Shown here: positions 3,975-40,844 of the stretch, piece after piece
How the letters are laid out: the number at the start of each line of letters is the position of its first letter
How positions within the stretch are numbered: the first letter of the stretch is position 1
IMG/VR virus record: IMGVR_UViG_3300031853_000017
Coordinates: 2,397-66,396 of that record
DNA: 64,000 nucleotides
Strand: one strand, 5' to 3'
Source: a virus
Lineage: Duplodnaviria; Heunggongvirae; Uroviricota; Caudoviricetes
The notes under the pieces: model-generated
What the model was told of the DNA's origin: nothing
Databases searched by the model: none
The model's input: only the letters and a program-made list of their open reading frames with translations
Translations under genes and position numbers: made by a program

Positions 3975-4192
3975 AGAAATTGAAAGAATTAATTGACAAA
4001 ACATACGATACAGGAAAAATGCCGGTCAAAAATATGTCACTGAACGATTTCCGCTATCTGGAATACATTCATGACGAGCTGATGAAGGGCAACAGGGTTT
4101 ATTACTGTTTTGCTACGGAAATCATCAATCCGATTTTGAAGAAATGCGGAATCGCGTTCAAGCAGCACCACATGGGCTACATTGCCGGTTAA
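3971..4192 (+). CDS. hypothetical protein
   Basis: translationally coupled ORF. Confidence 0.5.
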   Translation: MKKLKELIDKTYDTGKMPVKNMSLNDFRYLEYIHDELMKGNRVYYCFATEIINPILKKCGIAFKQHHMGYIAG

Positions 4193-4221
4193 TCAAATCA
4201 GAATTTTATGGAGGTGATTAC

Positions 4222-23892: not shown

Positions 23893-24261
23893 ATGCTGAA
23901 ACAAAAACCACATTTTGGCGAAATCTGGATGTGCCATTTGACTGATAGGAGTGGCAGCGTTCAGAGCGGTTATAGACCTGTGTTCGTCATTTCCAACGAC
24001 AAAAATAATACATACAGTAACACGTTTAACATCATTCCTATTACGTCAAAGTTTAACAAAAGGAATTTACCGGTTCATGTGGTGCTGCTAAATTATTGGG
24101 TATATGGTTTGAGAGAACCAAGTACAATATTGGTGGGGCAGACAACAACCGTCGGGATTAACTGTCTTGACAAAAGAATCGGAAAAATTATTGATAGGAA
24201 CATCTTGCTTGAAATAAGTAAGGCTATGATGATTCAATTTCCCATCTTTTCTTTGAGTTAA
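23893..24261 (+). CDS. MazF/PemK-family endoribonuclease toxin-like protein
   Basis: PHFGEIWMCHL...G.RPVFVIS...IIPITS pattern typical of MazF/PemK/Kid. Confidence 0.6.
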   Translation: MLKQKPHFGEIWMCHLTDRSGSVQSGYRPVFVISNDKNNTYSNTFNIIPITSKFNKRNLPVHVVLLNYWVYGLREPSTILVGQTTTVGINCLDKRIGKIIDRNILLEISKAMMIQFPIFSLS

Positions 24262-26288: not shown

Positions 26289-26888
26289 ATGACAGGATTA
26301 TTTGAAATAGATGATATTGTTGAAGTTTTGAGCCGTTGCCAAAGTTACGGAAAAAGAGGAATTGTTGTTGGGCATTTTACAACTCCAAGCTATCCGGAAT
26401 GTTTAGTTATACGAGTAAAATTGGATTCAGGCGAAACAAGATTTTACAATGAATCATCGTTAAAGAAAGTCGATGAAATTGAAAGAGAGGCTAAAGAAAT
26501 GGCATTAACAGAAGATTTTAGAGTTGCAAATGTAAAATTTCTTGACGGATATAATGGTGATAAGCTTTACAGATTTGCATTGTTCGACGATGATGTTACA
26601 GAGGGCGATTGTGTTGTTTGTGATACTCAGAACGGCTATTGTGTGGCAGAGGTCGTCAGCATTATATCTGCGGATAGTTACGGAAAGAACGTAACCAAAG
26701 AAATTGTCAGCAAGATTGACTTTTCGGAATTTAATCGCCGCAAAGAAATTCGCGCGAAGAAAGCAGAACTCAAAAAGAAACTCGACAAGGCAGTAAAAGA
26801 GAATCAAGACATTTTCCTGTATGAAACAGTTGCGAAATCAAACTCGGTTGTCGCGGAGCTGCTTGAACAGTATAAGGCATTGTTATAA
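26289..26888 (+). CDS. hypothetical protein
   Basis: GAAGGAG SD + ATG. Confidence 0.55.
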   Translation: MTGLFEIDDIVEVLSRCQSYGKRGIVVGHFTTPSYPECLVIRVKLDSGETRFYNESSLKKVDEIEREAKEMALTEDFRVANVKFLDGYNGDKLYRFALFDDDVTEGDCVVCDTQNGYCVAEVVSIISADSYGKNVTKEIVSKIDFSEFNRRKEIRAKKAELKKKLDKAVKENQDIFLYETVAKSNSVVAELLEQYKALL

Positions 26889-26901
26889 ATCAGGAGGAAA
26901 A

Positions 26902-27267
26902 ATGAGAGATAATAAACTTGGCTGTTTAGGATTTGTGTTGGTTGTTTTCTTGATAATAGGCGTAATTATTTTTAGTGCGTCTGCAAGCTATAACGAGCAC
27001 ACTTATACAGTTACAATCACAGACAAAGAACGTGTCTATGATAAAGATAGCAGTAAGTATTTGGTTTTCGGAGAAGATGTCGAAACCGGAGAAACAAGAG
27101 TATTTCAAAATACCGATTCGTTTTTTAGAGGAAAATTTGATAGCTCAAATGTCTATGGGAGTTTGAAAAAGGGAGAAACCTATACGGTTACTGTTGTTGG
27201 GTATAGAATCCCACTGTTTAGTTGGTATGAAAATATTATCAAATACGAAAAGGAGAGCAATAAATGA
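26902..27267 (+). CDS. membrane-anchored protein
   Basis: AGGAGG SD + ATG; N-terminal TM. Confidence 0.5.
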   Translation: MRDNKLGCLGFVLVVFLIIGVIIFSASASYNEHTYTVTITDKERVYDKDSSKYLVFGEDVETGETRVFQNTDSFFRGKFDSSNVYGSLKKGETYTVTVVGYRIPLFSWYENIIKYEKESNK

Positions 27268-27809
27268 AGAAACTACTGGTCTTAGTAGATTTTCAAAATG
27301 ATTTTATTGACGGTGCGCTCGGAACACCGGAAGCTATGGCAATCGTGCCGAATGTTATCAAGAAAGTAAAAGAATGGGACGGCGATATTTGGTTTACCGC
27401 AGATACACATAATACAAACTACTTAAATACAAATGAGGGTAAGCACCTTCCCGTTCCTCATTGTATCAGAGATACCGAAGGTTGGGAGTTACAGAAAGAC
27501 GTTGCAGAAATTCTCAGAGAGAAAATGTCACAAGAAGAATTTGAGCAAAATACATTTATTAAATATACATTTGGTTCTGAGAGATTGTGTTTGAGCATTA
27601 AGTTGTTACAATATGATTATGTTGAGTTTATTGGGCTTTGCACCGACATCTGTGTTGCAAGTAATGCAATTATGTTAAAGGCATTTATGCCTGAAACTCA
27701 GATTGCAGTTGACCCCTCATGTTGCGCCGGCGTAACTCCTGAAACTCACGAAGCGGCATTAACTACAATGAAAATGTGCCAGATTGATATTTTGGAGGTA
27801 GTAAAGTGA
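27264..27809 (+). CDS. isochorismatase-family cysteine hydrolase (nicotinamidase PncA-like)
   Basis: VLVDFQNDF (Asp), GLCTDICVASN (catalytic Cys) motifs; ATGA overlap with upstream gene. Confidence 0.65.
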   Translation: MKKLLVLVDFQNDFIDGALGTPEAMAIVPNVIKKVKEWDGDIWFTADTHNTNYLNTNEGKHLPVPHCIRDTEGWELQKDVAEILREKMSQEEFEQNTFIKYTFGSERLCLSIKLLQYDYVEFIGLCTDICVASNAIMLKAFMPETQIAVDPSCCAGVTPETHEAALTTMKMCQIDILEVVK

Positions 27810-28663
27810 TTCAAGTAAACCGCAAAACTGTTGAATTATCACGTTTTCCAGACGGAACACTTCATCTTGTTCCCGAAATTGATTTATCAAGTGCAGAATA
27901 TCACATTACAATTTCGTGGTATTATGAAGATGATAGTGAAATGGCAGCGTTACTGTTTTTGACAAGGTATTTCAAGGAAAATGGCTTTGAAGTTATTCTG
28001 TTCATGCCATATATCCCAAACGCAAGAATGGATAGGGTTAAAAATGAGAATGATGTTTTCACGCTCAAATATTTTGCGGACTTCATCAATTCACTTCATT
28101 TTTCTCTCGTTATAGTTCTCGACCCACATTCAGCTGTTAGTGAAGCCTTAATTAATAATATTATTGTTTTCACTCCTATTGATTACATAGAAAAAGCATT
28201 TGAAAGAGTCAATAAAGAAACGAATGGGGAAATCATTGCATTTTATCCCGATGAAGGCGCAATGAAACGATATTCCGAAATCATTGATTGCCCGTATGCG
28301 TTTGGAGTTAAAAGGCGCGATTGGTCTACCGGAAAAATTCTCGGATTGGACATTATCGGCGATGAAAACTATTTGCGCGGGAAAAATATAATCATTATTG
28401 ATGACATTAGCAGCAAGGGCGGTACATTCTATCATTCAGCAAAGAAACTCAAAGAGGTTGGCGTAAACAAAATTTTCCTCTATGTTACTCATTGTGAGAA
28501 AACAATATTAGAGGGGGAAGTGTTTACAAGTGGGTTGATCGACAAGGTATTTACAACAAATTCTATCTTTACTCCTGCCGCGCTTGAAACGGCAAAAAGT
28601 AAAGGTTTATCGGATAAAATTGAGGTGTTTGAAATTGAAAACGAATCCTATGCTACTGATTGA
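27806..28663 (+). CDS. ribose-phosphate pyrophosphokinase (Prs)-like protein; candidate ADPR-PP synthetase (Adps) of NARP1
   Basis: PYIPNARMDR (Prs PYxxYARQDR-like) and IIIDDISSKGGT PRPP-binding motif; overlaps flanking genes (coupled). Confidence 0.7.
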   Translation: MIQVNRKTVELSRFPDGTLHLVPEIDLSSAEYHITISWYYEDDSEMAALLFLTRYFKENGFEVILFMPYIPNARMDRVKNENDVFTLKYFADFINSLHFSLVIVLDPHSAVSEALINNIIVFTPIDYIEKAFERVNKETNGEIIAFYPDEGAMKRYSEIIDCPYAFGVKRRDWSTGKILGLDIIGDENYLRGKNIIIIDDISSKGGTFYHSAKKLKEVGVNKIFLYVTHCEKTILEGEVFTSGLIDKVFTTNSIFTPAALETAKSKGLSDKIEVFEIENESYATD

Positions 28664-30104
28664 TTTTTATAAGGCTGTTCATGCGGAAATGTTGCCGCAG
28701 AATATCACAAAATCAGTATCTTATTTTACACCACGCATGAGCCGCGTTAAGCGTTGGGATAAGGTTGTGATGTTTGGATTGCAAGGTTTTATCAAGGAAT
28801 ATCTAATTGATTTTTTCAATGATAATTTCTTCAATGTCCCGCTCGAAACCGTTATGGGCGAATACACAAGAATCATGGACAACACGCTTGGCAAAAATGC
28901 TTATAATCCAAAGAAGATTGAGAATTTACACAATCTTGGATATTTGCCGATTGAGATTGTAGCATTACCAGAGGGAACGCTTGTGCCTATGCACGTTCCG
29001 ATGTTCGGGATTACTAATACCCACAAGGATTTTGCGTGGCTTCCGCAGTCGCTTGAGTCTTTGATCTCGGCAGAAATGTGGCATCCGATGCTTGCGGCGA
29101 ATGTCGGTTATACATACCGTCAGATTGTCAACAAGTATTATGACGAAACCTGTGATGATAACATTCCACGAGCAAAAGCACTTGGAGCGTTTGATTTCCG
29201 TGGTGAGGAATGTTTGCAGAGCGCGACAAAGGCTGGCGCGGGTTGGCTGTTATCTTTCTTGAATACCGCAACGGTTCCGGCAATTCCGTACCTTGAAAAT
29301 TATTACAACTGTGATTGCACAAAAGAGCCTGTCGGTTTTGGTTCACCATCCACGGAACATTCCGTTATGTGTAGCAATTTCGCGGTTGACGGAGATGAAA
29401 TCACGCTGCTCCGCAGATTGTTGACAGAAATTTATCCGAACACTTCTTTCTCGGCGGTGCTTGACAGCTACGATTATTGGAATGTCATTGACAATATCCT
29501 TCCTCAGTTAAAGCCTGAAATTCTCGCACATAATGGCTGTATGCTCATGCGCGGAGATAGCGGCGATTGCATTGAGGTCGTAACCAAGACGGTATTTAAG
29601 TTGTGGGATATTTTCGGTGGCACGGTCAATAGCAAGGGTTATAAGGTACTTGACCCGCATGTTAAAGCTATTTACGGCGATTCTATCACTGTGCAGCGTT
29701 GCGAGATAATCTATGAAATCCTCAAAGAAAATGGATTTGCTTGCTCAAATGTTGCACTCGGCGTTGGTTCATTCTCATTCCAGTGCATTGAAGAAGATGG
29801 AATATTGAAGCCGTTCACACGCGACACGTTCAGTTCTTGCATTAAGGCTACTTATTGTGAGATTGATGATAAGCCTGTTCCGATTTTCAAGAATCCAAAA
29901 GATGGCGGATTTAAGAAATCTCAAAAGGGTTGTTGTGTTGTTTATAAATTTATGAACAACATTGTTTATAAGGACGAATATACTTGGAAAGAGGCAAACG
30001 AATTACCCTATCAGTTGCTTGAAACCGTATTTAAGGATGGAAAAATCGTTAAAGAGCAAACGCTTTCAGAAGTGCGCTCAGTATTGCACGGAGGTAAGTT
30101 TTAA
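28650..30104 (+). CDS. NAMPT-family phosphoribosyltransferase; candidate Namat of NARP1
   Basis: Colinear similarity to NAMPT: LLIDFYKAVH, LPIEIVALPEG, NSKGYKVLDP...GDS, conserved His in HSVM. Confidence 0.75.
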   Translation: MLLIDFYKAVHAEMLPQNITKSVSYFTPRMSRVKRWDKVVMFGLQGFIKEYLIDFFNDNFFNVPLETVMGEYTRIMDNTLGKNAYNPKKIENLHNLGYLPIEIVALPEGTLVPMHVPMFGITNTHKDFAWLPQSLESLISAEMWHPMLAANVGYTYRQIVNKYYDETCDDNIPRAKALGAFDFRGEECLQSATKAGAGWLLSFLNTATVPAIPYLENYYNCDCTKEPVGFGSPSTEHSVMCSNFAVDGDEITLLRRLLTEIYPNTSFSAVLDSYDYWNVIDNILPQLKPEILAHNGCMLMRGDSGDCIEVVTKTVFKLWDIFGGTVNSKGYKVLDPHVKAIYGDSITVQRCEIIYEILKENGFACSNVALGVGSFSFQCIEEDGILKPFTRDTFSSCIKATYCEIDDKPVPIFKNPKDGGFKKSQKGCCVVYKFMNNIVYKDEYTWKEANELPYQLLETVFKDGKIVKEQTLSEVRSVLHGGKF

Positions 30105-30892
30105 TGGGATTCAATGCAAATAAAGTTAAAGACGATATTGTTGTCTGGATTCGCAAGATGTTTGAAGAAAACGGTAAAGGTTGTAATGCAGTTATCGGAA
30201 TCTCAGGCGGCAAAGACTCAAGCGTAACCGCCGCATTATGCGTTGCTGCTTTAGGCAAAGATAGAGTAATCGGCGTTCTTATGCCAAATGGTAAGCAAGA
30301 GGATAAAAACGTTGCAGTTGAATTGTGTAACCATTTAGGCATTAACCATATCGAGATAAATGTCAAAAATGCGTTTGATTCCATTTTGGAGCAGATTGAC
30401 GAAATTTATATTTCAAAAGTGGATTCTTATATCCCGATTTCTATTTCCGATCAAACCACTATCAACCTTCCTCCGAGATTGCGCATGGCTACGTTATATG
30501 CAGTATCTCAATCTGTTGGTGGTCGTGTCATGAACACTTGTAATCTATCAGAGGATTATGTTGGATATGCGACCAGATACGGCGATTCTGCCGGAGATTT
30601 TGCACCTTTGGCTAATCTGACATCTGATGAAGTTATCGCGGTTGGTGCTGCTTGCGGACTACCAAATTCATTCATCTATAAAACTCCGTCAGATGGGCTT
30701 TGCGGCAAAACTGACGAAGATAATCTTGGGTTTACCTATAAAGTTCTTAATAAGTATATTAGGACTGGTATTTGTGAAGATAGCAAGATCAAGGAAAGAA
30801 TTGTCGCTATGCACAAGAAGAATAGGTTTAAGTTGCAGCCTATGCCGGCATTTCCATACAATGCCGGAAATGGAAGAAATAAACTACGATAA
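30104..30892 (+). CDS. nadE: NH3-dependent NAD+ synthetase (NadE)
   Basis: PP-loop GISGGKDSS; C-terminal similarity to NadE; TAATG overlap. Confidence 0.75.
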   Translation: MGFNANKVKDDIVVWIRKMFEENGKGCNAVIGISGGKDSSVTAALCVAALGKDRVIGVLMPNGKQEDKNVAVELCNHLGINHIEINVKNAFDSILEQIDEIYISKVDSYIPISISDQTTINLPPRLRMATLYAVSQSVGGRVMNTCNLSEDYVGYATRYGDSAGDFAPLANLTSDEVIAVGAACGLPNSFIYKTPSDGLCGKTDEDNLGFTYKVLNKYIRTGICEDSKIKERIVAMHKKNRFKLQPMPAFPYNAGNGRNKLR

Positions 30893-30931: not shown

Positions 30932-30960
30932 TTGACAAACGGAAAAATATGTGATATACT
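30932..30960 (+). promoter_or_regulatory. sigma70-like promoter followed by ~290-nt structured leader
   Basis: TTGACA-17-TATACT; hairpins CATCTCCCTTCAAAGGAGATAG and CCACAGGTGAAAGTCCTGTGG. Confidence 0.5.
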
Positions 30961-31253
30961 ATAAGAGAAGTCAGGAGATAACACCTTGACTTAAAAAATT
31001 CTCTTGTAAAGTAAACATAAAAAACATAATTAAATAATCGTAAGTAGTGAGTATAGAGCCTTTTGAAAAATAGCGAAACATCATTAGAATAATTAGTTCA
31101 TCTCCCTTCAAAGGAGATAGTCTTGGTTAAAGTCCGAGGTGTTGTTTCAAAGTTTGGATAAAGAAAAAGATAACATCGCGCGGGTTATCTCCCACAGGTG
31201 AAAGTCCTGTGGCTTACGTTGATATAGATATTACATTACAAAGGGAGTTACAA

Positions 31254-32873
31254 ATGTTAAACATTCTTATTCCAATCGGCATTGCGGTTGCGGTGCTTGC
31301 GTTTATAGTCATTTTCCTCTGTCGAATTTACAGAGTAGCAGACATTGACAAGGCGCTGATTATCACCGGAGGTAAAGAACCAGTCATTAAAGTATCAGGT
31401 GGTAGTTTTGTCGTTCCGATTTTCCGAAAAGCTCAGTATTTTGATTTATCAATGCTGACTGTTACAGCAGACCGTGATGAAGTAAAGACTAAAACATCAG
31501 TTCCTATCGTTATTGATTGGACAGCCCAGATTCGACCAGATACAATGAATCACGATAATTTACGTAAAGCAATTATTTCATTCAAAGAGCGAGGTCAAAA
31601 GGGCATTATCAATGACATCAAATTGACACTAACAGGTGCGGTTCGAGATATTGTTGCCGGAATGACACCGGAAGAAGTTCTCCGCGACAAACAGGCATTT
31701 GCCGAGAATGTAAGAGAAACAGTAGCAGATGAAATGGTCAATATGGGTATGGAGCTTGTTTCGCTCAATATTCAGGATATTTCAGACCAGAACGGCTACT
31801 ATGACAACATTGCTGCGCTCGACATGGAAGATAAACGTCAGGCTGCGGAAAAGAAGAAGGCAGTAATCAATGAATCCGTTCGTTCCCAGAATGCAGAATC
31901 AGAGAGAATTGCTTCACAAAACGAATTAGCCGCTGCATTGGCTGTCGCTGAAAAGCAGAGAGATAACAATATTAAGAAAGCGGCGTACAAGGCAGAAACA
32001 GATAAGGCTAATGCCGATGCGAACATTGCCGGCGAGTTGCAACGTACAATCAGGCAACAGGAAGTTGCAGAGCAACAAGGTCGTGTTGAGGTTGTAAAGC
32101 AGGAACAGGCTAATCTTGCGGCGATTAAAGAGCAGGAAGTAATTGCGACAAAAGCCGAATCCGAGAAAAAGAAAAAGCGGATTGAAGCAGAAGCAGACGC
32201 AAATGTTCAGACCATCGGCGCAGAAGCAAGGGTAAAGGTTGCCGAAAATGAAGCAAGCGCTGTAAAGATTCAGGCAAATGCACAGGCTGAAAGACTTAAA
32301 ACAGAAGGTGATGCCACTGCCGCAGTTATCAAGCAAAAGGGTATTGCGGAGGCTGATGTAACCAAACAGAAAGGTCTTGCAGCGGCGGAAGTCGAAAAGC
32401 AACAGGGTCTTGCACAAGCAGAAGTAATTAAGCAGAAGGGTCTTGCAGAGGCGGAAGTTGAAAGACAGAAGTTGATGGCACAGGCAGAAGGCGAGAGAGC
32501 ATTGGCGGATGCTCGTGCTTCAAATGAGAAAGTAAACTTTGAAATTGAGAAGTTGAAGCTCGAAACACAGGCAAGAATCACCATTGCTACCAAGACTGCG
32601 GAGCTTATGGCTGATGTAGGTAAGAATGCGGAGTTCGTTAATATTGGTGGCGGTGCTGCCAACGGCGGAACTGGAAACGTATTGACCGACACACTTTCAA
32701 GCATTCCAGTGCTGATGAAGAAATTAGACGCGGAAAATACCGCTCTAAACGGAAAGCCTTTCAATGATGAACTGCGAAACCTGATTGCAAGTATTGCAGA
32801 ACCAGTCAAGGGATTGCTTTCAACGACGGTGAATGAAGCACCGAAAACTGTGGAAGATACCGACGCAGAATAA
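31254..32873 (+). CDS. flotillin/SPFH (band 7) domain protein
   Basis: N-terminal TM + SPFH core + long Ala/Glu/Lys-rich QKGLAEAEV repeats typical of flotillins. Confidence 0.7.
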   Translation: MLNILIPIGIAVAVLAFIVIFLCRIYRVADIDKALIITGGKEPVIKVSGGSFVVPIFRKAQYFDLSMLTVTADRDEVKTKTSVPIVIDWTAQIRPDTMNHDNLRKAIISFKERGQKGIINDIKLTLTGAVRDIVAGMTPEEVLRDKQAFAENVRETVADEMVNMGMELVSLNIQDISDQNGYYDNIAALDMEDKRQAAEKKKAVINESVRSQNAESERIASQNELAAALAVAEKQRDNNIKKAAYKAETDKANADANIAGELQRTIRQQEVAEQQGRVEVVKQEQANLAAIKEQEVIATKAESEKKKKRIEAEADANVQTIGAEARVKVAENEASAVKIQANAQAERLKTEGDATAAVIKQKGIAEADVTKQKGLAAAEVEKQQGLAQAEVIKQKGLAEAEVERQKLMAQAEGERALADARASNEKVNFEIEKLKLETQARITIATKTAELMADVGKNAEFVNIGGGAANGGTGNVLTDTLSSIPVLMKKLDAENTALNGKPFNDELRNLIASIAEPVKGLLSTTVNEAPKTVEDTDAE

Positions 32874-32939
32874 GTAACGGTATTATACATAATAGGAGAG
32901 TGTGGAAACACTCTGCACTCTCCAATACCTCTTATATAT

Positions 32940-33015
32940 TGGGCTGTAGCCAAGCGGTTAAGGCATCGGTCTTTGACACCGTGATTCGTTGGTTCAAATC
33001 CAACCAGCCCAGCCA
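32940..33015 (+). tRNA. tRNA-Gln(TTG)
   Basis: Acceptor TGGGCTG/CAGCCCA, anticodon loop CTTTGAC, T-loop TTCAAAT, encoded CCA. Confidence 0.65.
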
Positions 33016-33021
33016 ATACAT

Positions 33022-33111
33022 TCTCGTGGAGTTCGGTAATGTCGCATGTGATACTGGACGAAGGCAAAATCGCCGTGGTTTATGTGGGTTCAAATCCCAT
33101 CACGAGAGCCA
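33022..33111 (+). tRNA. tRNA-like, 90 nt, anticodon unresolved
   Basis: Perfect 7-bp acceptor TCTCGTG/CACGAGA, T-arm GTGGGTTCAAATCCCAT, CCA; internal arms atypical. Confidence 0.4.
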
Positions 33112-33546
33112 GACCCGCCGTTACAAGTAAACACAGAGTTGAATGTAGCGGAATGAACCTAATAATTGGTCATTAGTCAGTGGGTAGAATAGCCACACGG
33201 GTCAAACTGCCCGTAGCCAAAAGAGTTTGTTTTCATACTTTTGTTTATCAGAAGTAAGGTTTGTACGTTTTACTTTATAAGAGCGTGGAATACGGTTTCA
33301 ATTTAAGCCGAGGGAAGTTTATTCATTCTGACCTATGGAAAGTGAATGAGTAAGGTGGGATTCGCGCCTTGCAGTAACGTGGCAAGTGGAAACATTTCGG
33401 GTTGGCTACCGAAATTGGGAACACACCGATTAGGATGACAACCTACTTTCAACTGCAAAAGATAACAATAGTCAATAAATTTAATGGCTCGCGGCTCGCA
33501 AAGAGCGACCACATATTATGACTTTGGCGGAAGTCGCGGGTTATAT

Positions 33547-33639
33547 GGCGCAGTAACCCTAATAGGCAAGGGAGCAGTTTGCTAAACTGTGAGTAGCCGA
33601 GCAATCGGTGTGTTGGTTCGAGTCCAACCTGTGCCGCCA
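33547..33639 (+). tRNA. tRNA-Ser(GCT)
   Basis: Acceptor GGCGCAG/CTGTGCC, anticodon loop TTGCTAA, long variable arm GCCGAGCAATCGGT, CCA. Confidence 0.6.
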
Positions 33640-33813
33640 TAAGGTTCTTGTTGACCGAAGAATAACAAGCGATGCCCAATGAGAAGCGGGCGTGAAGTCT
33701 GTCAGTCGGACAATGCTGAGATAGCGGCTGCGTGTTATGTGTGACTTTTCGGCGGGTTTTCAATAGGACTTTAGCGTGAATAAAGTTGAAGTAATAATCC
33801 GCCCACGACATAT

Positions 33814-34216
33814 GGGGCTGAAATAGATTCGACAGGGCACAGAAAACATATAACTTCGCAGGAATGTAACATCCTTAAAGTACACCTTAAAAAATAAACG
33901 ACACTACTGTTGTTACACTTCATCCCGCGCTTTTAGCAGTTCTCGGTCAGAGAGCCGTAGCGTGAGATTCCGATAAGTACCTGCTATTCGGTCTAACTTG
34001 TCGGACGGAAATAGAATAGCAACCAATGGTTTCTTACTTCCGCAAAAAGTAAGTGGTGGAGTGGGTGTAAATCTTTACATCTCCATTCGTTTCCCGCGAA
34101 TTAAAACAAAGTTGTGGTTTGCAGGTTTCCACGGAGAAAAATCGGCTATTGCGTAAGAAAAGTTAGTGTGAGTATGTGTTTTGGACACGGAGGGCAGTTC
34201 TCCGTCAGCTCCACCA
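33814..34216 (+). ncRNA. ssrA: tmRNA (ssrA)
   Basis: 5' GGGGCTGAAATAGATTCGACAGGG matches tmRNA 5' consensus; 3' GGACACGGAGGGCAGTTCTCCGTCAGCTCCACCA matches tmRNA T-arm/acceptor/CCA; ends pair. Confidence 0.7.
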
Positions 34217-34242
34217 ATTTATAAATAAGGGGTTTAATTCTC

Positions 34243-34899
34243 ATTTCATATATTTATAAGATTACAAATCTTGCAAATGGCAAGATATATGTCGGCAATA
34301 CCAGTAGGGATATTCAGACACGTTTGAAGGAGCATTTAAGAGAATCTAAAAAAGAAAGAAATAGAAATAGACCTTTATCTATTGCTATAAGAGAATATGG
34401 TCAGGAAAATTTTCAAATTGATTTAATTGAAGAATGTCCTATTGAAATTGCACCGGAACGTGAAAGATATTGGGTTGATCGTTATAATAGTTTCAAAGAT
34501 GGATATAATGCGACCTATGGTGGGTTAGGCAGTAATAGCGTTGATTATGACAAAGTAGTTGATACATATTTGCAAGTTAGGAGCCAAAAAGAAACTGCGG
34601 AATTATTGAATATTTCACCTTTTACTGTAAGTAGTATATTACAACAAAAAAATGTAGACTATGATACAAGTTATGAAGTATTAGCAAAAAGATGCAGTAA
34701 ATCAGTTGATATGTTGTCTATGAGTGGCGAATTTATAAGACAATTTCCTTCGATACGCAAAGCAACTAAATATATTATAGAAACCGAGAATAAACCTTAT
34801 AAGCATATATTTGGTATAGAACAACACATTATAAATGTTTGTCAAGGAAAAAGAAATTCAGCTTATAACTACAAATGGAAATATTCAAATGTAGTTTAA
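34243..34899 (+). CDS. GIY-YIG homing endonuclease (I-TevI-like), probable non-ATG (ATT) start
   Basis: SYIYKITNLANGKIYVGNT...RLKEH...YGQENF...YWVDRYNSFKDGYN; GIY-YIG motif lies upstream of first ATG/TTG (34324), directly after tmRNA. Confidence 0.6.
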   Translation: MSYIYKITNLANGKIYVGNTSRDIQTRLKEHLRESKKERNRNRPLSIAIREYGQENFQIDLIEECPIEIAPERERYWVDRYNSFKDGYNATYGGLGSNSVDYDKVVDTYLQVRSQKETAELLNISPFTVSSILQQKNVDYDTSYEVLAKRCSKSVDMLSMSGEFIRQFPSIRKATKYIIETENKPYKHIFGIEQHIINVCQGKRNSAYNYKWKYSNVV

Positions 34900-35052
34900 C
34901 TAAAAGATGAACCAAATCCACATCTATAAAAAGGATTGGTGGTAGTGGAATCTTGTATTCACCTGATGAACTTAACTCACATCATTAAAAAGAGTTAGTG
35001 GTGGGATTCGAGGATAAACCTCGCGGGAGAGTCAATTATACTCTCCCAAAAC

Positions 35053-35127
35053 GCAGACATAGTGTAATTGGTAACACACCGTCCTTCCAAGCCGGATTTG
35101 CGGGTTCAAGTCCCGTTGTCTGCTCCA
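35053..35127 (+). tRNA. tRNA-Gly(TCC)
   Basis: Acceptor GCAGACA/TGTCTGC, loop CTTCCAA, CCA; one mismatch in anticodon stem. Confidence 0.5.
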
Positions 35128-35133
35128 TAAAAT

Positions 35134-35208
35134 GTGGTTGTTAGTGTAGTGGTAGCACGACAGATTGTGACTCTGTTAGGATAGGTTCAAATCCTGTACT
35201 TCCACCCA
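35134..35208 (+). tRNA. tRNA-His(GTG) with G-1; two T-T mismatches in acceptor stem
   Basis: 8-bp acceptor GTGGTTGT/ACTTCCAC, loop TTGTGAC, CCA. Confidence 0.55.
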
Positions 35209-35211
35209 TAT

Positions 35212-35284
35212 GCCGATGTAGCTCAGAGGCTAAGAGCAGTCCGACGAACGGGATATGTCGATGGTTCGAGTCCATCCATTGGTA
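35212..35284 (+). tRNA. tRNA-Arg(ACG)-like with 5-nt anticodon loop (possible pseudo-tRNA)
   Basis: GCCGATG acceptor, GCTCAGAGGCTAAGAGC D-arm, GTCCG-ACGAA-CGGGA, T-arm GATGGTTCGAGTCCATC. Confidence 0.35.
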
Positions 35285-35390
35285 AACGTAGTTAGTAGCA
35301 CTACGGTCAATAAGCTACACGCGATTGGTGGTTATCGCAGAGGTTGACAACTAAAAACCATCTGACACTTCGGAAAGACGGGGCATATGC

Positions 35391-35466
35391 GGCGGGTTAG
35401 TCAAGAGGTGAAGATACGCGGCTTTCAATCGCGTGACGCTGGGTTCGATTCCCGCACCCGCTACCA
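35391..35466 (+). tRNA. tRNA-Glu(TTC)
   Basis: Acceptor GGCGGGT/ACCCGCT, D-arm GTCAAGAGGTGAAGAT, loop CTTTCAA, CCA. Confidence 0.65.
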
Positions 35467-35470
35467 ATAT

Positions 35471-35545
35471 GCGCCAGTAATTCAGTGGAAGAATAACGCA
35501 CTTTTAATGCGGAGGTCGGAGGTTCAAATCCTCTCTGGCGCACCA
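35471..35545 (+). tRNA. tRNA-Lys(TTT)
   Basis: Acceptor GCGCCAG/CTGGCGC, loop CTTTTAA, CCA. Confidence 0.7.
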
Positions 35546-35589
35546 TCTCATACACAACCAGCAATATTAAAGGCACAGTCTGTCAAACT

Positions 35590-35700
35590 GTATTACCTCA
35601 CTTGTGTATGGTTCATAAGGCACATTAACAGCAAATTTACAATGGTAAACAAGAAGTCTGGAAAATTTTAAGTGAGTAGGTTCAAATCCTGCAACCGTGC
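35590..35700 (+). ncRNA. tRNA-like element with insertion carrying AACAGCAAATTTAC motif
   Basis: T-arm GTAGGTTCAAATCCTGC with possible acceptor TATGGTT/AACCGTG; motif at ~35626. Confidence 0.25.
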
Positions 35701-35798
35701 TATGCACGTTCTTAAATGTGTCTTGATTACAAACAAAAAAAGATACGAACAGCGAAAGCTCCTAAGTGTCTTGAAAAGAAAGAAAAGGAGAAAAAGAA

Positions 35799-37352
35799 AT
35801 GTCATTTTTTACTGAACTTCAAAACAACATTAACGAGATCAACAATTTGCAGCGTACCGAAAATGGCGCTCTTGGTTACAAATCGACCGGCAAGACTATC
35901 CTTGACATGAACTTTGACGTTCCGAAATATCGTCATTCTTCGCCGGAAGAGATTCTCGCCAAGTTTAATCAGGCGCGTTCGGAAAATCCCACGCTTGCTA
36001 TCCTGTGGACATTCTTTGCAAGAGATGTTCGCGGCGGTCTTGGAGAAAGAAGATTGTTCAGAATCCTGTTCCGCGAAATCTGCAATTCTGATACCGAAAC
36101 TGCAAAGAAGGTTATTCCTTTGGTTTCTGAATACGGCAGATGGGACGATTTGATTTATTCTACAATCAATACTCCTGCATGGGAAAAGACCATTGAGGTT
36201 GTCAAGGCGCAGTTGCTTGAAGATACCGATAACGTTAAGGCAAACAAGCCTATTACGTTGCTCGGAAAGTGGCTGCCCAGCGAGAGAACTTCAAGCGTAC
36301 AAACAAGAGAAACCGCGCGGAAGATTGCACACGACATCGGTTTGCCGATTAAGGATTACAACCGTATGCTTGTCGCTTTGCGTAAGTATTCAAATGTCGT
36401 TGAGGTAAAAATGAGCGCAAGAGAATGGGGCGCGATTGATTATTCAGCCGTTCCTTCCTATGCAAACTTGAAGTATAACAGTGCTTTCCTTCGCAACGAC
36501 GAAGAAAGACGTAGAAAGTACCTTGCGGCACTCACAAAGGGCGAAACCAAAATCAATGCTTCTACTGCTTATCCGCACGACATTGTGAGGAAGTACAAGA
36601 TTGGTTGGAGTTATGCCAATCATGCAGACGAAGCGATCGAAGCAATGTGGAAAGCGTTGCCTGACATGGGCGGCTTGGAAAACACAATCGTTGTTGCAGA
36701 TGGTTCCGGCTCAATGTATGGCGGTGGAAATCCTTCGCCGATTGACGTTGCGAATGCCCTTGCGATTTACTGCGCCGAGCATAACAAAGGTGAGTTTTAC
36801 AACAAGTATATCACATTCTCGCGTACCCCGAAGTTTGTTGATTTAAGCAAAGGCAAGACTTTGTTGGATAAACTCAACATTGCAAGTCGCCATAATGAGG
36901 TTGCCAACACGAATATCGAGGCTGTCTTTGACATTATTCTTGATACGGCGATCGAGAGCAAGGCGGCGCAAGAAGATATTCCGAAGTCAATTCTTATCAT
37001 TTCCGATATGGAATTTGATAGTTGCGCGGAATCTAATTCATCATCTCGTCGTGGAACGACAAGTTATTATTCCATGCGCAGTTACAACCGCCCTGATTCA
37101 ACTCTGTTTAAGCAGATTGAGAAGAAGTATGCGGCGGCTGGATATAAAATTCCGCGCGTGGTATTTTGGAATGTTGCTTCAAGAACAAGCACAATCCCAA
37201 TGATTGAAAATGATTTGGGTGTAACGCTTGTCAGCGGTTATTCCGTATCAATCTTCAAGATGATTATGGACGGAGAAACAGACCCATTCCAGAATCTTGT
37301 TAATATGCTGATGTCTGAGAGGTATCAGCCGGTTTACAAGGCAATTCAATAA
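35799..37352 (+). CDS. Ro60/Rsr-like protein (TROVE-like N-terminal region + vWA MIDAS domain)
   Basis: 517 aa; C-terminal MIDAS VVADGSGSM and ILIISDME; overall size and domain order as Ro60/Rsr. Confidence 0.5.
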   Translation: MSFFTELQNNINEINNLQRTENGALGYKSTGKTILDMNFDVPKYRHSSPEEILAKFNQARSENPTLAILWTFFARDVRGGLGERRLFRILFREICNSDTETAKKVIPLVSEYGRWDDLIYSTINTPAWEKTIEVVKAQLLEDTDNVKANKPITLLGKWLPSERTSSVQTRETARKIAHDIGLPIKDYNRMLVALRKYSNVVEVKMSAREWGAIDYSAVPSYANLKYNSAFLRNDEERRRKYLAALTKGETKINASTAYPHDIVRKYKIGWSYANHADEAIEAMWKALPDMGGLENTIVVADGSGSMYGGGNPSPIDVANALAIYCAEHNKGEFYNKYITFSRTPKFVDLSKGKTLLDKLNIASRHNEVANTNIEAVFDIILDTAIESKAAQEDIPKSILIISDMEFDSCAESNSSSRRGTTSYYSMRSYNRPDSTLFKQIEKKYAAAGYKIPRVVFWNVASRTSTIPMIENDLGVTLVSGYSVSIFKMIMDGETDPFQNLVNMLMSERYQPVYKAIQ

Positions 37353-37395
37353 GGTAGCAACTGTATAGCTTGACGGCGGGAAAGACCGCAAATAT

Positions 37396-37514
37396 AAGGG
37401 TGTAGTCTAATGATAGGACACTGGTGATAAATGACGTGTCATGGCGCGGCACAAACAGCAATCAACTATTATCGACCCAAACCAGAAATGTAGGTTCAAA
37501 TCCTGCCGCCCTTG
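37396..37514 (+). ncRNA. tRNA-like element A with ~50-nt insertion (motif ACAGCAATCAAC)
   Basis: Acceptor AAGGGTG/CGCCCTT, D-arm, T-arm GTAGGTTCAAATCCTGC. Confidence 0.35.
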
Positions 37515-37521
37515 TCAATAT

Positions 37522-37648
37522 TGGGATGTAGCTCAGTTGGTTAGAGCAACGTAAAAATACAAAAGGTGTTTTGTAAAAGCACTTGCAGCAATTTTAACGT
37601 AAAGCATGTTAAGCCGTAGGTCGCAGGTTCGAGTCCTGCCATCCCAGC
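37522..37648 (+). ncRNA. tRNA-like element B: Ala/Val-type acceptor+D-arm, ~55-nt insertion replacing anticodon loop
   Basis: TGGGATGTAGCTCAGTTGGTTAGAGC...; 10-bp helix ACGTAAAAAT/ATTTTAACGT encloses ACAAAAGGTGTTTTGT hairpin and CTTGCAGCAATTTTA; T-arm GCAGGTTCGAGTCCTGC. Confidence 0.4.
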
Positions 37649-37653
37649 CTATA

Positions 37654-37758
37654 TGCGGGTGTAGCTCAGTTGGTAGAGCGTATAAATATAATGTTTTGCG
37701 AAAACATTAACAGCAATTTTATTATAATGTCAGCAGTTTAAATCTGTTCGCCCGCACC
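37654..37758 (+). ncRNA. tRNA-like element C with 29-36-nt insertion in anticodon region
   Basis: GCGGGTGTAGCTCAGTTGGTAGAGC; stem TATAA/TTATA; insert AATGTTTTGCGAAAACATT hairpin + AACAGCAATTTTA; T-arm AGCAGTTTAAATCTGTT; acceptor CGCCCGC. Confidence 0.4.
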
Positions 37759-37759
37759 G

Positions 37760-37935
37760 TTTTCATACGCTAACAGCAACCATTATTTACATCAGACCAT
37801 GTATGCCTGAACCGTGAATTTTTAGCGTATGGTTTATATAAGACACACGCAGCAATTTTACATACGGATAATAATTAAAACTGCAAACTTTAATTTAGGT
37901 GGTTCAAATCCACCAAACTTAGTGTCTTGAATACA
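37760..37935 (+). ncRNA. repeat units with ACAGCAA...TTTAC motifs and a T-arm-like GGTGGTTCAAATCCACC
   Basis: CATACGCTAA...TTAGCGTATG 10-bp inverted repeat around motif; second motif CACGCAGCAATTTTACATAC. Confidence 0.25.
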
Positions 37936-37945
37936 ATTACATATG

Positions 37946-38077
37946 GGTGGCGTAGCTCAGTTGGTAGAGCGGTTTTACTTTTCTATTCCCGTGTCTTAGA
38001 GAGTCACGCACAGCAACTTTACAGAATTATGCTTTAGGAGCAGCGTGTCGCAGGTTCAAGTCCTGTCGTCACCCCCC
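37946..38077 (+). ncRNA. tRNA-like element E with ~60-nt insertion (motif CACAGCAACTTTAC)
   Basis: GGTGGCGTAGCTCAGTTGGTAGAGC ... T-arm GCAGGTTCAAGTCCTGT, acceptor CGTCACC. Confidence 0.4.
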
Positions 38078-38178
38078 AACATCTTGCGCAAACAGCAATT
38101 TTACATTTACATCAAACTTTTAATTTGACACGTAGGTAAGCGTAAGGAAAAAATATTACAGTAAATATAAAAAACTTA

Positions 38179-38207
38179 TTGACAAACTCAAAGGTTTGTG
38201 ATATAAT
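38179..38207 (+). promoter_or_regulatory. sigma70-like promoter
   Basis: TTGACA-17-TATAAT. Confidence 0.55.
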
Positions 38208-38285
38208 AAGATTGTCAATTAAGGAAAGCCGCTTTTCAGCGGAAAAACTTAAAGCAAAGAACAGTAAACATAAAAAAGTTAATAT

Positions 38286-38362
38286 GTGGGTGTGACGGAA
38301 TTGGCATACGTCCTTGTCTTAGAAACAAGTTTTTGTGGGTTCAAGTCCCACCGCCCATACCA
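38286..38362 (+). tRNA. tRNA with anticodon TAG (Leu by anticodon) but short variable arm
   Basis: Acceptor GTGGGTG/CGCCCAT, anticodon arm CTTGT-CTTAGAA-ACAAG, CCA. Confidence 0.55.
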
Positions 38363-38372
38363 AGAGGTAGAA

Positions 38373-38660
38373 ATGAAAAGATTGAGTATTCTAATTGGAA
38401 TTTCGTGTATCTCTATTACAGTTTTTGCTGTTATGAGAACAATTCTTATTTCTGTAAGAGGAACGGTAACTTTCGGCGGAGAAGCATTGATTCTTATTAT
38501 TCCGCTTTTGGTTTGGTTGGTTTTTAAGAATATTGATTTAACCAAAGAGGAAATGAAAGACGCTGAACTTTCAAAAGAAGCAGAAAACGCAAGTCGCATT
38601 AAAGTTGAAGATTGCGGCGGAGCGGTTCAAATTACTGATATTCACGTTATTGATAAATAG
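38373..38660 (+). CDS. small membrane protein
   Basis: AAGAGGTAG SD + ATG; two TM helices. Confidence 0.45.
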   Translation: MKRLSILIGISCISITVFAVMRTILISVRGTVTFGGEALILIIPLLVWLVFKNIDLTKEEMKDAELSKEAENASRIKVEDCGGAVQITDIHVIDK

Positions 38661-38730
38661 ATTCACCTCCTTTCTTAATGTGTAGTGACAAATCGGATAG
38701 ACGGTTGACAGCCGGGCAGACGGCATAAAT

Positions 38731-38807
38731 GGTCGTATATCCCAATAGGCAGAGGAAGCGGACTTAAAATCCGCACAGTGTCGGTTCGAGTCCGACTACG
38801 ACTACCA
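38731..38807 (+). tRNA. tRNA with anticodon TAA (Leu by anticodon), short variable arm
   Basis: Acceptor GGTCGTA/TACGACT, arm GCGGA-CTTAAAA-TCCGC, CCA. Confidence 0.55.
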
Positions 38808-38815
38808 CAATAAAT

Positions 38816-38893
38816 GTTGTGATAGGCTCAATAGGTTAGAGCTTTCGCCTTATAAGCGAAGGGCTGGTGGTTCGAGTCCACCTCACAACACCA
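38816..38893 (+). tRNA. tRNA-Ile(TAT)-like
   Basis: Acceptor GTTGTGA/TCACAAC, D-arm GCTCAATAGGTTAGAGC, arm TTCGC-CTTATAA-GCGAA, CCA. Confidence 0.5.
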
Positions 38894-38959
38894 TTATCCA
38901 AATTTATCCTATTCAAATCCTAATTAAAGGTTGACCGCCGAGAATAGTTCGGCACATAT

Positions 38960-39035
38960 GCTCCGATAGTACAGCAGGTTAGTACGCTCGGCTGATAATC
39001 GAGTAACTATGGTTCAAATCCATATCGGAGTACCA
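38960..39035 (+). tRNA. tRNA-Ile(GAT)
   Basis: Acceptor GCTCCGA/TCGGAGT, D-arm GTACAGCAGGTTAGTAC, loop CTGATAA, CCA. Confidence 0.65.
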
Positions 39036-39201
39036 TATAACAATAAAAAGGTTTTGATAAATAATATCAGGTTATTGCAATGATGTATGTATTATTTGTG
39101 GCAAGAGATTAACTCGTCGTCACAAAACACCTTATTGCCGATTTCATTATGATATACAACGAAAAGAAGAAAAGATAAAGAAATGGTTAGAAACAGGTGA
39201 T

Positions 39202-39537
39202 ATGGGATTGGGCGCAGATACTACCGTTCGCGGTACTATTAGAGAATACATACTAAATGAGCAAGGTGGAAAATGTGCTATTTGTGGTATTTCAAATATG
39301 TGGAACAATAAACCTTTGGCATTTATATTAGACCATATAGATGGTAATGCCGCAAATTCAGCAAGAGAAAACGTAAGACTTGTATGCCCAAACTGTGATA
39401 GTCAATTAGATACATATAAATCTAAAAATAAACATTCAGCACGTTCTGGAAGAAAAAAGTATCTAAAAGAAGTAAGAAATGAAAAAATGGCTGGTGAAGC
39501 AGACAAGCGTGCTGCAACCGACTTGAAATCGGATTGA
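39202..39537 (+). CDS. HNH homing endonuclease (conserved zinc-finger-like N-terminal extension encoded in frame upstream from 39061 without canonical start)
   Basis: LDHIDGNAANSARENVRLVCPNCDSQ HNH motif; upstream in-frame CNDVCIICGKRL... Confidence 0.6.
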   Translation: MGLGADTTVRGTIREYILNEQGGKCAICGISNMWNNKPLAFILDHIDGNAANSARENVRLVCPNCDSQLDTYKSKNKHSARSGRKKYLKEVRNEKMAGEADKRAATDLKSD

Positions 39538-39544
39538 CCCGCAA

Positions 39545-39577
39545 GGGTTGGGGTGCAAGTCCTCCGCCAGTCGCCAA
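39545..39577 (+). ncRNA. tRNA-like 3' fragment (T-arm-like + CCA) overlapping the end of HNH gene
   Basis: GGGTTGGGGTGCAAGTCCTCCGCCAGTCGCCA. Confidence 0.2.
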
Positions 39578-40116
39578 AATTGAATGTTGTTCGCTGCGAA
39601 AATAGGCGGGGCAAATTAAAAAGGTTATGAGCGTAAGAAATTACGTCCGCAAAGTCCTCGTTAGCGGGATGCGTGGGTACTGCACCTATGCTGATGGTAC
39701 TCGGCAACATCTGAAATCAATGAGAAGTCATTAATCTGTTCAGGTTGAAATGATATATACCTGTTCGGTACTGAAACCTATCAGGCATTGGTTTTGGCGT
39801 TATAGCCCTACCGATACGTTAAATCGGGGAATCACAAACAGAGGGATAATTAGATTGTAGCCAAATTAAGGTCAATTAGCGAAAGCGAGTAATTCAATCA
39901 ATCCATTACAAGCGGTTGTGCGCTTGGTTCGGGCTATGGATTTAGATAGGGGAGATTGATTGCGGTGAAGTTAATATCGTGCCGGCGGAGTCGGTTAAAG
40001 TTATTACTTGATAATTCCGAGGCGGGGAACGTGGTTAAAGAAGGCAATGCAAACCAACCAACGGTGTTTAGGCATTGAGTAGGAGCTATCCCATCGGCGC
40101 GGTATTAACAACATTT

Positions 40117-40201
40117 GCTGGTGTGTCGGAATAGGCAGACGAGGCAGACTCAAAATCTGTTGCCGAAAGGCGTGTGGGTTCAAGTCCCACCACCAGCACC
40201 A
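40117..40201 (+). tRNA. tRNA-Leu(CAA), class II
   Basis: Acceptor GCTGGTG/CACCAGC, loop CTCAAAA, long variable arm TGCCGAAAGGCGT, CCA. Confidence 0.7.
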
Positions 40202-40221
40202 AAGAAAAGGAGTTTTTGAAA

Positions 40222-40488
40222 TTGACAGCTAAAACCAGACGAGAATCAAATAAAAAAGTTGAGCGCGAGAAAAGATACGCACAAGTTATGAGCATATTGA
40301 AAGGTCGTATAATGACGGCAAAAGAAGTTGCTATAGAAATGAATTTGCGTGGATTTGCGCCAACATCTGAACGTAATTTTGCCGCGCCAAGACTTACTGA
40401 GTTAGTTGATCGCGGGATAGTTGAAGTTGTTGGAAAACGAAAATGCCAATATTCAAATAAAATGGTGGCTATGTATAAATTAGTTTAG
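40222..40488 (+). CDS. putative winged-helix DNA-binding protein (TTG start)
   Basis: AAGGAG SD then TTG. Confidence 0.4.
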   Translation: MTAKTRRESNKKVEREKRYAQVMSILKGRIMTAKEVAIEMNLRGFAPTSERNFAAPRLTELVDRGIVEVVGKRKCQYSNKMVAMYKLV

Positions 40489-40690
40489 TTTATTCCTCGC
40501 AGTAAGAGTTTGCGGAATGCTCAAACTGCTTTCGTATAAAATGTTGTTTGTGTTGTTGTGGTTAAAATTCGTTGTTGTTGACATTCCAAAATTATTCCGA
40601 CAAAGGGCATTGAGCAGAGCCTATGTGGTGGTGATAACTCTATTCCACCTATCAAGTGTGGCGGTCACTTATACAAAAACCGCTAAATAT

Positions 40691-40765
40691 TGCGGGATAG
40701 AGCAGCGGTAGCTCGTTAGCCTCATAAGCTAAAGGTCGTAGGTTCGATTCCTACTCCCGCAACCA
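40691..40765 (+). tRNA. tRNA-Met(CAT)
   Basis: Acceptor TGCGGGA/TCCCGCA, D-arm GAGCAGCGGTAGCTC, loop CTCATAA, CCA. Confidence 0.7.
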
Positions 40766-40768
40766 TAT

Positions 40769-40844
40769 CTGGGTGTAAGTCAATGGTAGACGGCTTGATT
40801 TGGGGTCAAGTAGTTTGGGGGTTCAAGTCCCTTCACTCAGACCA
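40769..40844 (+). tRNA. tRNA-Pro(TGG)
   Basis: Acceptor CTGGGTG/CACTCAG, arm CTTGA-TTTGGGG-TCAAG, CCA. Confidence 0.6.

Follow-up and report, generated by a model that had tools for sequence, protein, structure and literature searches.

We analysed a 64,000-nucleotide stretch of DNA (hereafter called the window) from a gut phage of the Caudoviricetes, corresponding to positions 2,397 to 66,396 of the IMG/VR record IMGVR_UViG_3300031853_000017. Its + strand harbours four co-oriented, overlapping open reading frames (ORFs) that code for homologues of the nicotinamidase PncA, the ribose-phosphate pyrophosphokinase Prs, the nicotinamide phosphoribosyltransferase NAMPT and the NAD+ synthetase NadE. 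NAD+ depletion is a very common antiphage strategy, found in Thoeris, DSR, SIR2-HerA, SEFIR and short Argonaute-SIR2 systems, and NAD-depleting defences cleave NAD+ into ADP-ribose (ADPR) and nicotinamide. To our knowledge, the metabolic counter-measures of phages are the NAD+ reconstitution pathways NARP1, NARP2 and NARP3. The module described here is real, recurrent and functionally coherent, and we consider it somewhat probable that it represents a deamidated NARP1, which would rebuild NAD+ after a defence attack via nicotinate and nicotinic acid adenine dinucleotide (NaAD). It is composed of the following genes, in which Adps and Namat designate the two enzymes of NARP1:

27264..27809, + strand: PncA-like cysteine hydrolase, 181 residues, ATG start
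27806..28663, + strand: Adps-clade Prs homologue, 285 residues, GTG start
28635..30104 (TTG start, 489 residues) or 28650..30104 (ATG start, 484 residues), + strand: Namat-clade transferase with a remodelled pyridine pocket
30104..30892, + strand: NadE, NH3-dependent NAD+ synthetase, 262 residues, ATG start

The preliminary description of this DNA had reported four overlapping ORFs with this order and these coordinates, which our analysis bears out. The stop codon of the pncA-like gene is overlapped over 4 nt by the GTG of the adps-like gene at 27806 (GTGA), the transferase ATG at 28650 lies 14 nt inside the adps-like ORF, whose stop codon is at 28661-28663, and the ATG of nadE at 30104 has one base in common with the TAA stop of the transferase gene (TAATG). 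The ATGA junction also mentioned there is that between the stop codon of an upstream ORF (26821-27267) and the ATG of the pncA-like gene at 27264. Shine-Dalgarno-like motifs are present 5' of 27264 (AGGAG), 27806 (GGAGG) and 30104 (GGAGG). For the transferase, the alternative in-frame TTG at 28635 has a better Shine-Dalgarno motif, GAGGTG, about 8 nt upstream. It gives a 29-nt overlap with the adps-like gene and a length of 489 residues, identical to that of the public gene calls for the same protein (P0001/P0002), and it may be the real start. The ends of the module genes coincide with the ends of their homologues. The four family labels first given to these proteins are backed by profile matches with E values of ~1e-20 to 1e-155, and every motif quoted in their favour (PYIPNARMDR, DDISSKGGT, DFYKAVH, LPIEIVALPEG and NSKGYKVL...GDS) was found.

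NARP1 consists of Adps and Namat (Osterman et al. 2024, bioRxiv 10.1101/2024.02.11.579819), and the structures of both enzymes have been reported (Namat, PMC12774641; Adps, UniProt F1D1Q1, PMC13586617). The Adps of SPbetaL1 pyrophosphorylates ADPR and does not act as a Prs. The Prs homologue of the window matches phrog_619 ('ribose-phosphate pyrophosphokinase', E = 3.2e-71) and scores below all NCBIfam Prs cutoffs. It shares 41% identity with SPbetaL1 Adps (173 bits) and 34% with FADO Adps, versus at most 61 bits with the cellular Prs structures in the PDB. Residues Arg87, His121, Asp161, Lys185, Asp212 and Asp213, which are those of the structurally characterized F1D1Q1 Adps and are numbered here after the ICP1 homologue (L319), are invariant in an alignment including the window protein and that homologue. 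Likewise, its diphosphate loop, DDISSKGGTF, resembles DDLSSFGGTF of SPbetaL1 Adps. These comparisons place the Prs homologue in the Adps clade, not with cellular Prs, and they agree with the NARP1 assignment proposed for it in the preliminary description.

The transferase matches phrog_448 (NAMPT, E = 1.2e-155) and exceeds the cutoff of the NCBIfam model NF006629 for NAMPT / NadV (436.7 versus 405 bits), a model that does not separate Namat from NAMPT. The comparison of NAMPT with Namat suggested for this protein was made on individual sequences: it scores 414 bits against SPbetaL1 Namat (PDB 9W5X/9W5W; 45% identity), 332 bits against the NadV of Haemophilus ducreyi and 166 bits against human NAMPT. 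An AlphaFold2 model (pLDDT 93.7, pTM 0.92) has Namat (PDB 9W5X) as its top Foldseek match, with a TM score of 0.93 and an rmsd of 1.7-1.8 Å. The alignment to 9W5X and our survey of related loci show that the transferase retains Asp13, Tyr15, Arg40, Phe189, Arg192, Arg306, Asp308, the catalytic His and Phe392. Among these, Arg40 is the stacking residue of the selectivity-clamp loop (SCL) and is conserved in both data sets, as are the catalytic His and Arg306, and Arg40 and Phe392 provide adenine contacts in Namat. On these sequence affinities, the Prs-like and NAMPT-like pair is the core of NARP1, with members of the Adps and Namat clades rather than a housekeeping Prs and NAMPT; a housekeeping Prs/NAMPT salvage was rejected because of the clade membership of both proteins. 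As in NARP1, an Adps-clade gene is directly followed by a translationally coupled Namat-clade gene in a phage genome, and the catalytic residues of both enzymes are conserved. The window unit differs from NARP1 by its additional nicotinamidase and NadE genes, by several changes in the transferase (see below) and by the predicted product of the latter, NaAD instead of NAD+.

In SPbetaL1 Namat, nicotinamide is held between Phe189 and Tyr15' and forms a hydrogen bond with Asp215, in a pocket lined by Arg192, Ala242, Arg306 and Asp13' (PMC12774641). In the window transferase, Asp215 is replaced by Ala and Ala242 by Ser, and His187 is deleted. These changes are shared by a whole subclade, in which position 215 is Ala, Ser or Val, coupled with the replacement of Ala242 by Ser or Gly (hereafter called switched-pocket enzymes); position 213 is Asn in the window enzyme and Lys in many relatives. 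The counterpart of Asp215 in human NAMPT, Asp219, is the recognized determinant of nicotinamide specificity (PMC7096376), and Ser214 of human nicotinate phosphoribosyltransferase occupies the equivalent site (PMC4442680). When 96 canonical and 46 variant representatives of clusters at 50% identity were compared, nine positions cleanly split the two groups, namely 128, 172, 185, 187, 213, 215, 239, 242 and 304. Apart from 128 and 172, all of them are in or beside the pocket segments around Phe189, Asp215, Ala242 and Arg306. By its residues, the transferase is thus not a canonical Namat, as the Asp that specifies nicotinamide is gone.

A further difference is found in the selectivity-clamp helix (SCH), which in Namat carries the adenine-clamp motif GS-X-phi-X-phi-X-phi-TRD, whose positions 3 and 7 are aromatic. 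The window enzyme has GSFSFQC-IEEDGILKP-FTRD, in which Phe392, the first of the two aromatic residues, is retained and TRD is preceded by a nine-residue insertion. This insertion is modelled as a beta-hairpin between GSFSFQ and TRD. The exact canonical motif is kept in other members of the subclade, including those of phage Phass-1, P0142, P0148 and P0163.

The PncA homologue harbours the Isochorismatase domain (Pfam PF00857, E = 8.9e-20). Nearly all of its 10 sequence matches in the PDB are nicotinamidases/pyrazinamidases or proteins deposited as isochorismatases or cysteine hydrolases (among them 5ZN8, 1ILW/1IM5, 3S2S, 3O90 and 3PL1), the best-scoring named ones being nicotinamidases; the exception is 3EEF, an N-carbamoylsarcosine amidase-related protein. 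Its score is below the cutoff of the NCBIfam PncA equivalog model NF008623, which represents the enterobacterial type (24.5 versus 174 bits). The catalytic residues Asp9, Lys100 and Cys130 and the metal ligands Asp47, His49 and His66 are at least 97% conserved among 192 distinct module-linked homologues sharing 39-100% identity, with the catalytic Lys aligned 2-3 residues off that of Bacillus subtilis PncA. NadE is a single-domain protein devoid of a glutaminase domain. It matches PF02540 (NAD_synthase, E = 1.6e-49), exceeds the TIGR00552 cutoff (166 versus 63.65 bits), and its best PDB matches are the NH3-dependent NadE enzymes 2E18 (119 bits) and 3FIU (103 bits). The SGGxDS ATP-pyrophosphatase P-loop, GISGGKDSS in the window protein, is at least 97% conserved among 178 homologues linked to the module, as are other residues. 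Because their catalytic residues are conserved throughout the module-linked homologues, both the PncA homologue and NadE look active.

To analyse the genetic environment of these enzymes, we gathered loci from IMG/VR, GenBank phages, species-representative genomes and metagenome assemblies, which yielded ~250 distinct homologues with flanking DNA. Diversity was sampled by a search for representatives at 50% identity, as the 120 best matches of a plain search were near-identical sequences only. The switched pocket is present in about one-third of the best 150 representatives. The adjacency of adps and the Namat gene is conserved in about 250 related loci, and the complete set of four genes is found again in hundreds of contigs of gut phages. 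For distinct Namat sequences flanked on both sides by 3 kb of DNA or more, residues 215 and 242 and the neighbouring genes were then scored, with the following counts:

Ala/Ser215 + Ser242 enzymes: NadE, PncA and Adps, 172; PncA only, 9; NadE only, 2; neither, 1
Asp/Glu215 + Ala242 enzymes: NadE, PncA and Adps, 0; PncA only, 0; NadE only, 0; neither, 24

NadE or PncA was thus found beside none of the 24 Asp/Glu215 Namats with such flanks. The linkage extends to switched-pocket enzymes with an unaltered adenine clamp. Nine representatives combine the switched pocket with a fully canonical clamp (motif GSYTYQYVTRD), and four divergent loci of this type with <50% identity (L315-L318) have an NAD synthase gene nearby in all cases and an isochorismatase gene in three. 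Phage Phass-1, which also has the switched pocket and the canonical clamp, obeys the same rule. No close relatives of P0142 were found in IMG/VR, and its genetic context was read from the contigs that encode it. With identities as low as 29% between its members, the variant clade is old, and several gene orders are found in it: PncA-Adps-Namat-NadE, Adps-Namat-Macro-NadE-PncA, PncA-Adps-Namat-Macro-NadE and PncA-Namat-NadE-Adps. As gene order varies across the clade down to 29% identity, the association persists through rearrangement. In one natural protein, P0178 (865 residues; L296 6001-8598), a switched-pocket Namat is fused to NadE. An isochorismatase gene is located directly upstream, followed by an RNA ligase gene and, ~1.3 kb further upstream, by a gene for a 510-residue Prs-family protein. 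An apparent PncA-Namat chimaera, P0219, was rejected since it is a 308-residue fragment.

Taken together, the identities and clades of the proteins, the conservation of their catalytic residues, the pocket changes and the association with NadE and PncA are the basis from which all substrates and products are inferred. In the proposed pathway, the PncA homologue would convert nicotinamide to nicotinate and NH3, and the Adps homologue would convert ADPR and ATP to ADPR-pyrophosphate (ADPR-PP) and AMP. The Namat-clade transferase, devoid of the amide-binding Asp, would then combine nicotinate and ADPR-PP into NaAD and pyrophosphate, and NadE would generate NAD+ from NaAD, NH3 and ATP. Where a phage has no NadE or PncA of its own, these steps could be taken over by enzymes of the host. 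A deamidated NARP1 would account for several observations. A phage nicotinamidase, which would starve a normal Namat, would be tolerated and conserved because the transferase would use nicotinate; NadE would be linked or fused to switched-pocket enzymes only, because their product would be NaAD; and the direct formation of NaAD would explain the absence of NadD or NMN adenylyltransferase (NMNAT; NMN, nicotinamide mononucleotide) genes from the loci examined. Macro-domain genes, found in about 45% of variant modules, point to ADPR rather than ribose-5-phosphate as the input, given that the Macro protein Adpp is an ADPR-1''-phosphate phosphatase. Whether the transferase catalyses the reaction of nicotinate with ADPR-PP to NaAD and pyrophosphate appears to us evenly balanced. 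If it does, this reaction would define a deamidated NARP1 of four enzymes, found in many large phages of gut Clostridia and, in a fused form, as Namat::NadE. As to possible advantages, we can only speculate that host nicotinamidase outcompetes Namat in Clostridia, that the charged base is trapped in the cell or that the ATP-driven last step makes the route irreversible.

Several points weigh against a deamidated NARP1. All four steps are deduced from comparisons between sequences, and the reason why a deamidated route would be selected is a matter of speculation. The pocket residue is no absolute switch, since wild-type human NAMPT can bind nicotinic acid, as indicated by the titles of PDB entries 6TA0/6TA2. 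In the window enzyme, the SCH insertion replaces the region of the adenine-clamp residue Tyr396 and could alter the recognition of ADPR-PP. A neighbour-joining tree needs one change only for the pocket switch; the covariation therefore represents a single event, whose outcome was retained for long despite rearrangement and fusion, rather than repeated origins. Moreover, 10-12 switched-pocket loci have no NadE or PncA within 6 kb. Finally, NadE has its second-best match in the PDB with 3FIU, an enzyme from Francisella that presumably prefers nicotinic acid mononucleotide (NaMN).

A first alternative is a phage Preiss-Handler salvage based on phosphoribosyl pyrophosphate (PRPP), which we regard as rather unlikely. 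Here, the Prs-like protein would make PRPP and the transferase would be a nicotinate phosphoribosyltransferase producing NaMN, after which host NadD would make NaAD for NadE, or NadE would amidate NaMN to NMN. The pocket switch would also be compatible with a nicotinate phosphoribosyltransferase, Namat is still active with PRPP in vitro (PMC12774641), adenine might be recognized less well because of the SCH insertion, and NadE is nearly as similar to 3FIU as to classical NadE. However, the Prs-like protein groups with Adps, and the Adps that has been tested makes no PRPP. The same linkage to NadE and PncA is also seen for switched-pocket enzymes with the fully canonical clamp, Macro/Adpp-type genes are common in these modules, and the Namat::NadE fusion suggests consecutive steps. 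In addition, no NadD or NMNAT was found among the called genes of four divergent loci, in a Pfam scan of L001 or among the ORFs scanned beside the window module.

There are two other explanations. The transferase might be a canonical Namat that makes NAD+ from nicotinamide, with PncA and NadE boosting the Preiss-Handler pathway of the host in parallel. The conservation of all catalytic and ribose-phosphate contacts of Namat would fit such an arrangement, as would the propensity of phages to collect NAD genes, with NadE found in cyanophages and jumbo phages of the GenBank phage collection. We nevertheless consider it quite unlikely: the residue that binds the amide of nicotinamide is lost, neither helper gene accompanies any of the 24 Namats that retain an acidic residue at position 215, a phage nicotinamidase would compete for the substrate of a nicotinamide-using Namat, and fusion to NadE is left unexplained if the product is already NAD+. 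Alternatively, the transferase might accept both nicotinamide and nicotinate, whichever the host leaves, with NadE serving the nicotinate branch only. With Ala or Ser instead of Asp, the charge repulsion disappears, yet the window enzyme, in which residue 213 is Asn, has gained no obvious ligand specific for a carboxylate. PncA is also absent from some loci, and both observations are consistent with dual specificity. The near-universal presence of a phage nicotinamidase rather suggests deliberate conversion of nicotinamide, and we deem dual specificity distinctly improbable.

A deamidated NARP1 would share features with several known systems. In NARP1-AP, NARP1 is complemented with Adpp, a Macro-domain phosphatase acting on ADPR-1''-phosphate (bioRxiv 10.64898/2026.01.28.702374). 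It provides a precedent for accessory genes in NARP1 operons, and many relatives of the module carry a Macro gene. In contrast, no Macro homologue was found in the window, whose accessory proteins PncA and NadE act on the pyridine half and not on the ADPR half of the molecule. The Preiss-Handler pathway (PncA-PncB-NadD-NadE) similarly starts with a nicotinamidase, ends with NadE and has NaAD as an intermediate, but the module lacks a PncB-family nicotinate phosphoribosyltransferase and NadD, both steps being replaced by one ADPR-PP transferase in the most plausible interpretation. NARP2 (Nampt and Nmnat) and NARP3 (PnuC and NadR; PMC13464706) are also phage pathways that restore NAD+ against NADase defences. 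The module has no NMNAT, NadR or PnuC gene, and its input would be derived from ADPR rather than being NMN or nicotinamide riboside. Neither the ORFs scanned at 26-33 kb nor 20 further large ORFs of the window included an NMNAT, the partner enzyme of NARP2. NARP3 was rejected as an explanation of the module, since PnuC and NadR are unrelated to its genes.

The preliminary description had placed PncA and NadE outside the described NARP modules, in agreement with our search of the NARP literature. In the NARP1/2 preprint, the Namat and Adps structure papers, the NARP1-AP paper and the RyR-domain paper, NadE, nicotinamidase, nicotinate and NaAD are not linked to NARP1. The NARP3 paper mentions nicotinic acid twice in passing, in the context of an unrelated pathway, and makes no link between NARP1 and NadE, nicotinamidase or NaAD. 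Within this literature, no description of a deamidated route was found. The suggestions that the unit is part of a larger NAD rebuilding circuit or a module of the Preiss-Handler type each hold in part: our analysis favours a hybrid, ADPR-based like NARP1 and deamidated like Preiss-Handler. The genome paper of Phass-1 annotates the nicotinamidase, Prs and NAMPT without discussing them. NadE matches are present in only 53 of 50,697 GenBank phage records, whereas metagenomic phages of the gut commonly carry the module, as do contigs assigned by binning to genomes of Lachnospiraceae and other Clostridia. Because NadE is rare in GenBank phages, the module has probably been overlooked by surveys of cultured-phage databases.

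If the proposed pathway is correct, it would involve a new enzymatic reaction, in which ADP-ribosyl transfer to nicotinate leads straight to NaAD. It would represent a fourth phage NAD+ reconstitution route and a new branch for both NAD biochemistry and phage counter-defence, and the switch between nicotinamide and nicotinate known from NAMPT and nicotinate phosphoribosyltransferase (Asp versus Ser) would have been re-used within the Namat family. Positions 215 and 242, together with a neighbouring NadE gene, provide an annotation rule for two kinds of Namat.

Additional observations were made on the related loci. The L315 module (128-4614) comprises a gene for a 282-residue Adps-like protein, followed by isochorismatase, Namat and NAD synthase genes, the Namat having the switched pocket. 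It adjoins a chemoreceptor gene and a gene whose product has a weak match to the winged helix of NrtR, and it may be a chromosomal bacterial version of the module under an NrtR-type regulator of NAD metabolism. RNA-ligase-family genes (PF09414) are found directly beside Adps genes in two divergent versions of the module (L001 5250-5999 and L296 4211-5389). Many Namat/NAMPT homologues (P0122-P0270) have 550-1100 residues, and their alignment to the query falls into 2-4 separate pieces. It is frequently interrupted near query residue 312, at a site where the window enzyme lacks 12 residues present in SPbetaL1 Namat, which suggests inteins or large insertions at a recurrent site.

As for the boundaries of the unit, the upstream ORF that is ATGA-coupled to pncA (26821-27267; phrog_301, 'secreted protein') was rejected as a module member, since it adjoins the module in no related locus. 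Stop-codon recoding was rejected as a source of ORF artefacts, as reading TGA or TAG as sense brought no specific gain in the window. Scans of the region for promoters and terminators gave no more sites than shuffled sequence and no clear promoter directly 5' of pncA. One match is located just 3' of the NadE stop codon, at the 3' boundary of the coupled unit:

30932..30960, + strand: strong sigma-70-like promoter match, TTGACA-17-TATACT with TG, 11/12, a consensus match only

All long ORFs of the window except one are on the same strand, with a steady positive GC skew, and the window has the appearance of a segment of a large phage genome. It also encodes a sliding clamp, a primase-like protein and an integrase-like recombinase. 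Its closest relatives are IMG/VR viral contigs of 100-170 kb; further ones are contigs from binned genomes, mostly of Lachnospiraceae and other Clostridia, and a few come from assemblies of isolates (Pseudoruminococcus massiliensis, Filifactor villosus). The gene at 54224-56302 (+) encodes a full-length NAD-dependent DNA ligase (phrog_3869, E = 4e-166). Phage replication would therefore consume NAD+, which provides a direct reason to protect the NAD+ pool. An adenylosuccinate-synthetase homologue at 61756-62946 (+) matches phrog_1211 (PurZ-type, 2-aminoadenine biosynthesis; E = 3.9e-45), which raises the possibility that the phage genome contains the Z base. No Pfam match was obtained for the two ORFs 5' of this gene (60268-61751).

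The NAD module is immediately followed by 15 tRNA genes, arrayed over 31077-40844 (+). The first of them (31077-31148, +), 185 nt past the NadE stop codon, has the UGA-reading anticodon TCA and is called SeC by ARAGORN (40.3 bits with the Rfam tRNA model). It could be an opal-suppressor or a Trp(UCA)-type tRNA; a crude ORF-length test gave no clear sign of TGA recoding in the window. Phass-1, which has the same module, uses TAG recoding. A 122-residue ORF at 23893-24261 (+), a few kb 5' of the module, resembles MazF/PemK-type toxins, as judged by eye only. A flotillin/SPFH-like gene lies within the tRNA array (31209-32873) and is also found 3' of the module in some relatives (L019, L026 and L035). 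Lastly, a homologue of the Thg1-family tRNA-His guanylyltransferases is encoded at 40864-41724 (+), with further Thg1 genes close to those of NARP1 in Bacillus phage FADO (L003) and within locus L317.

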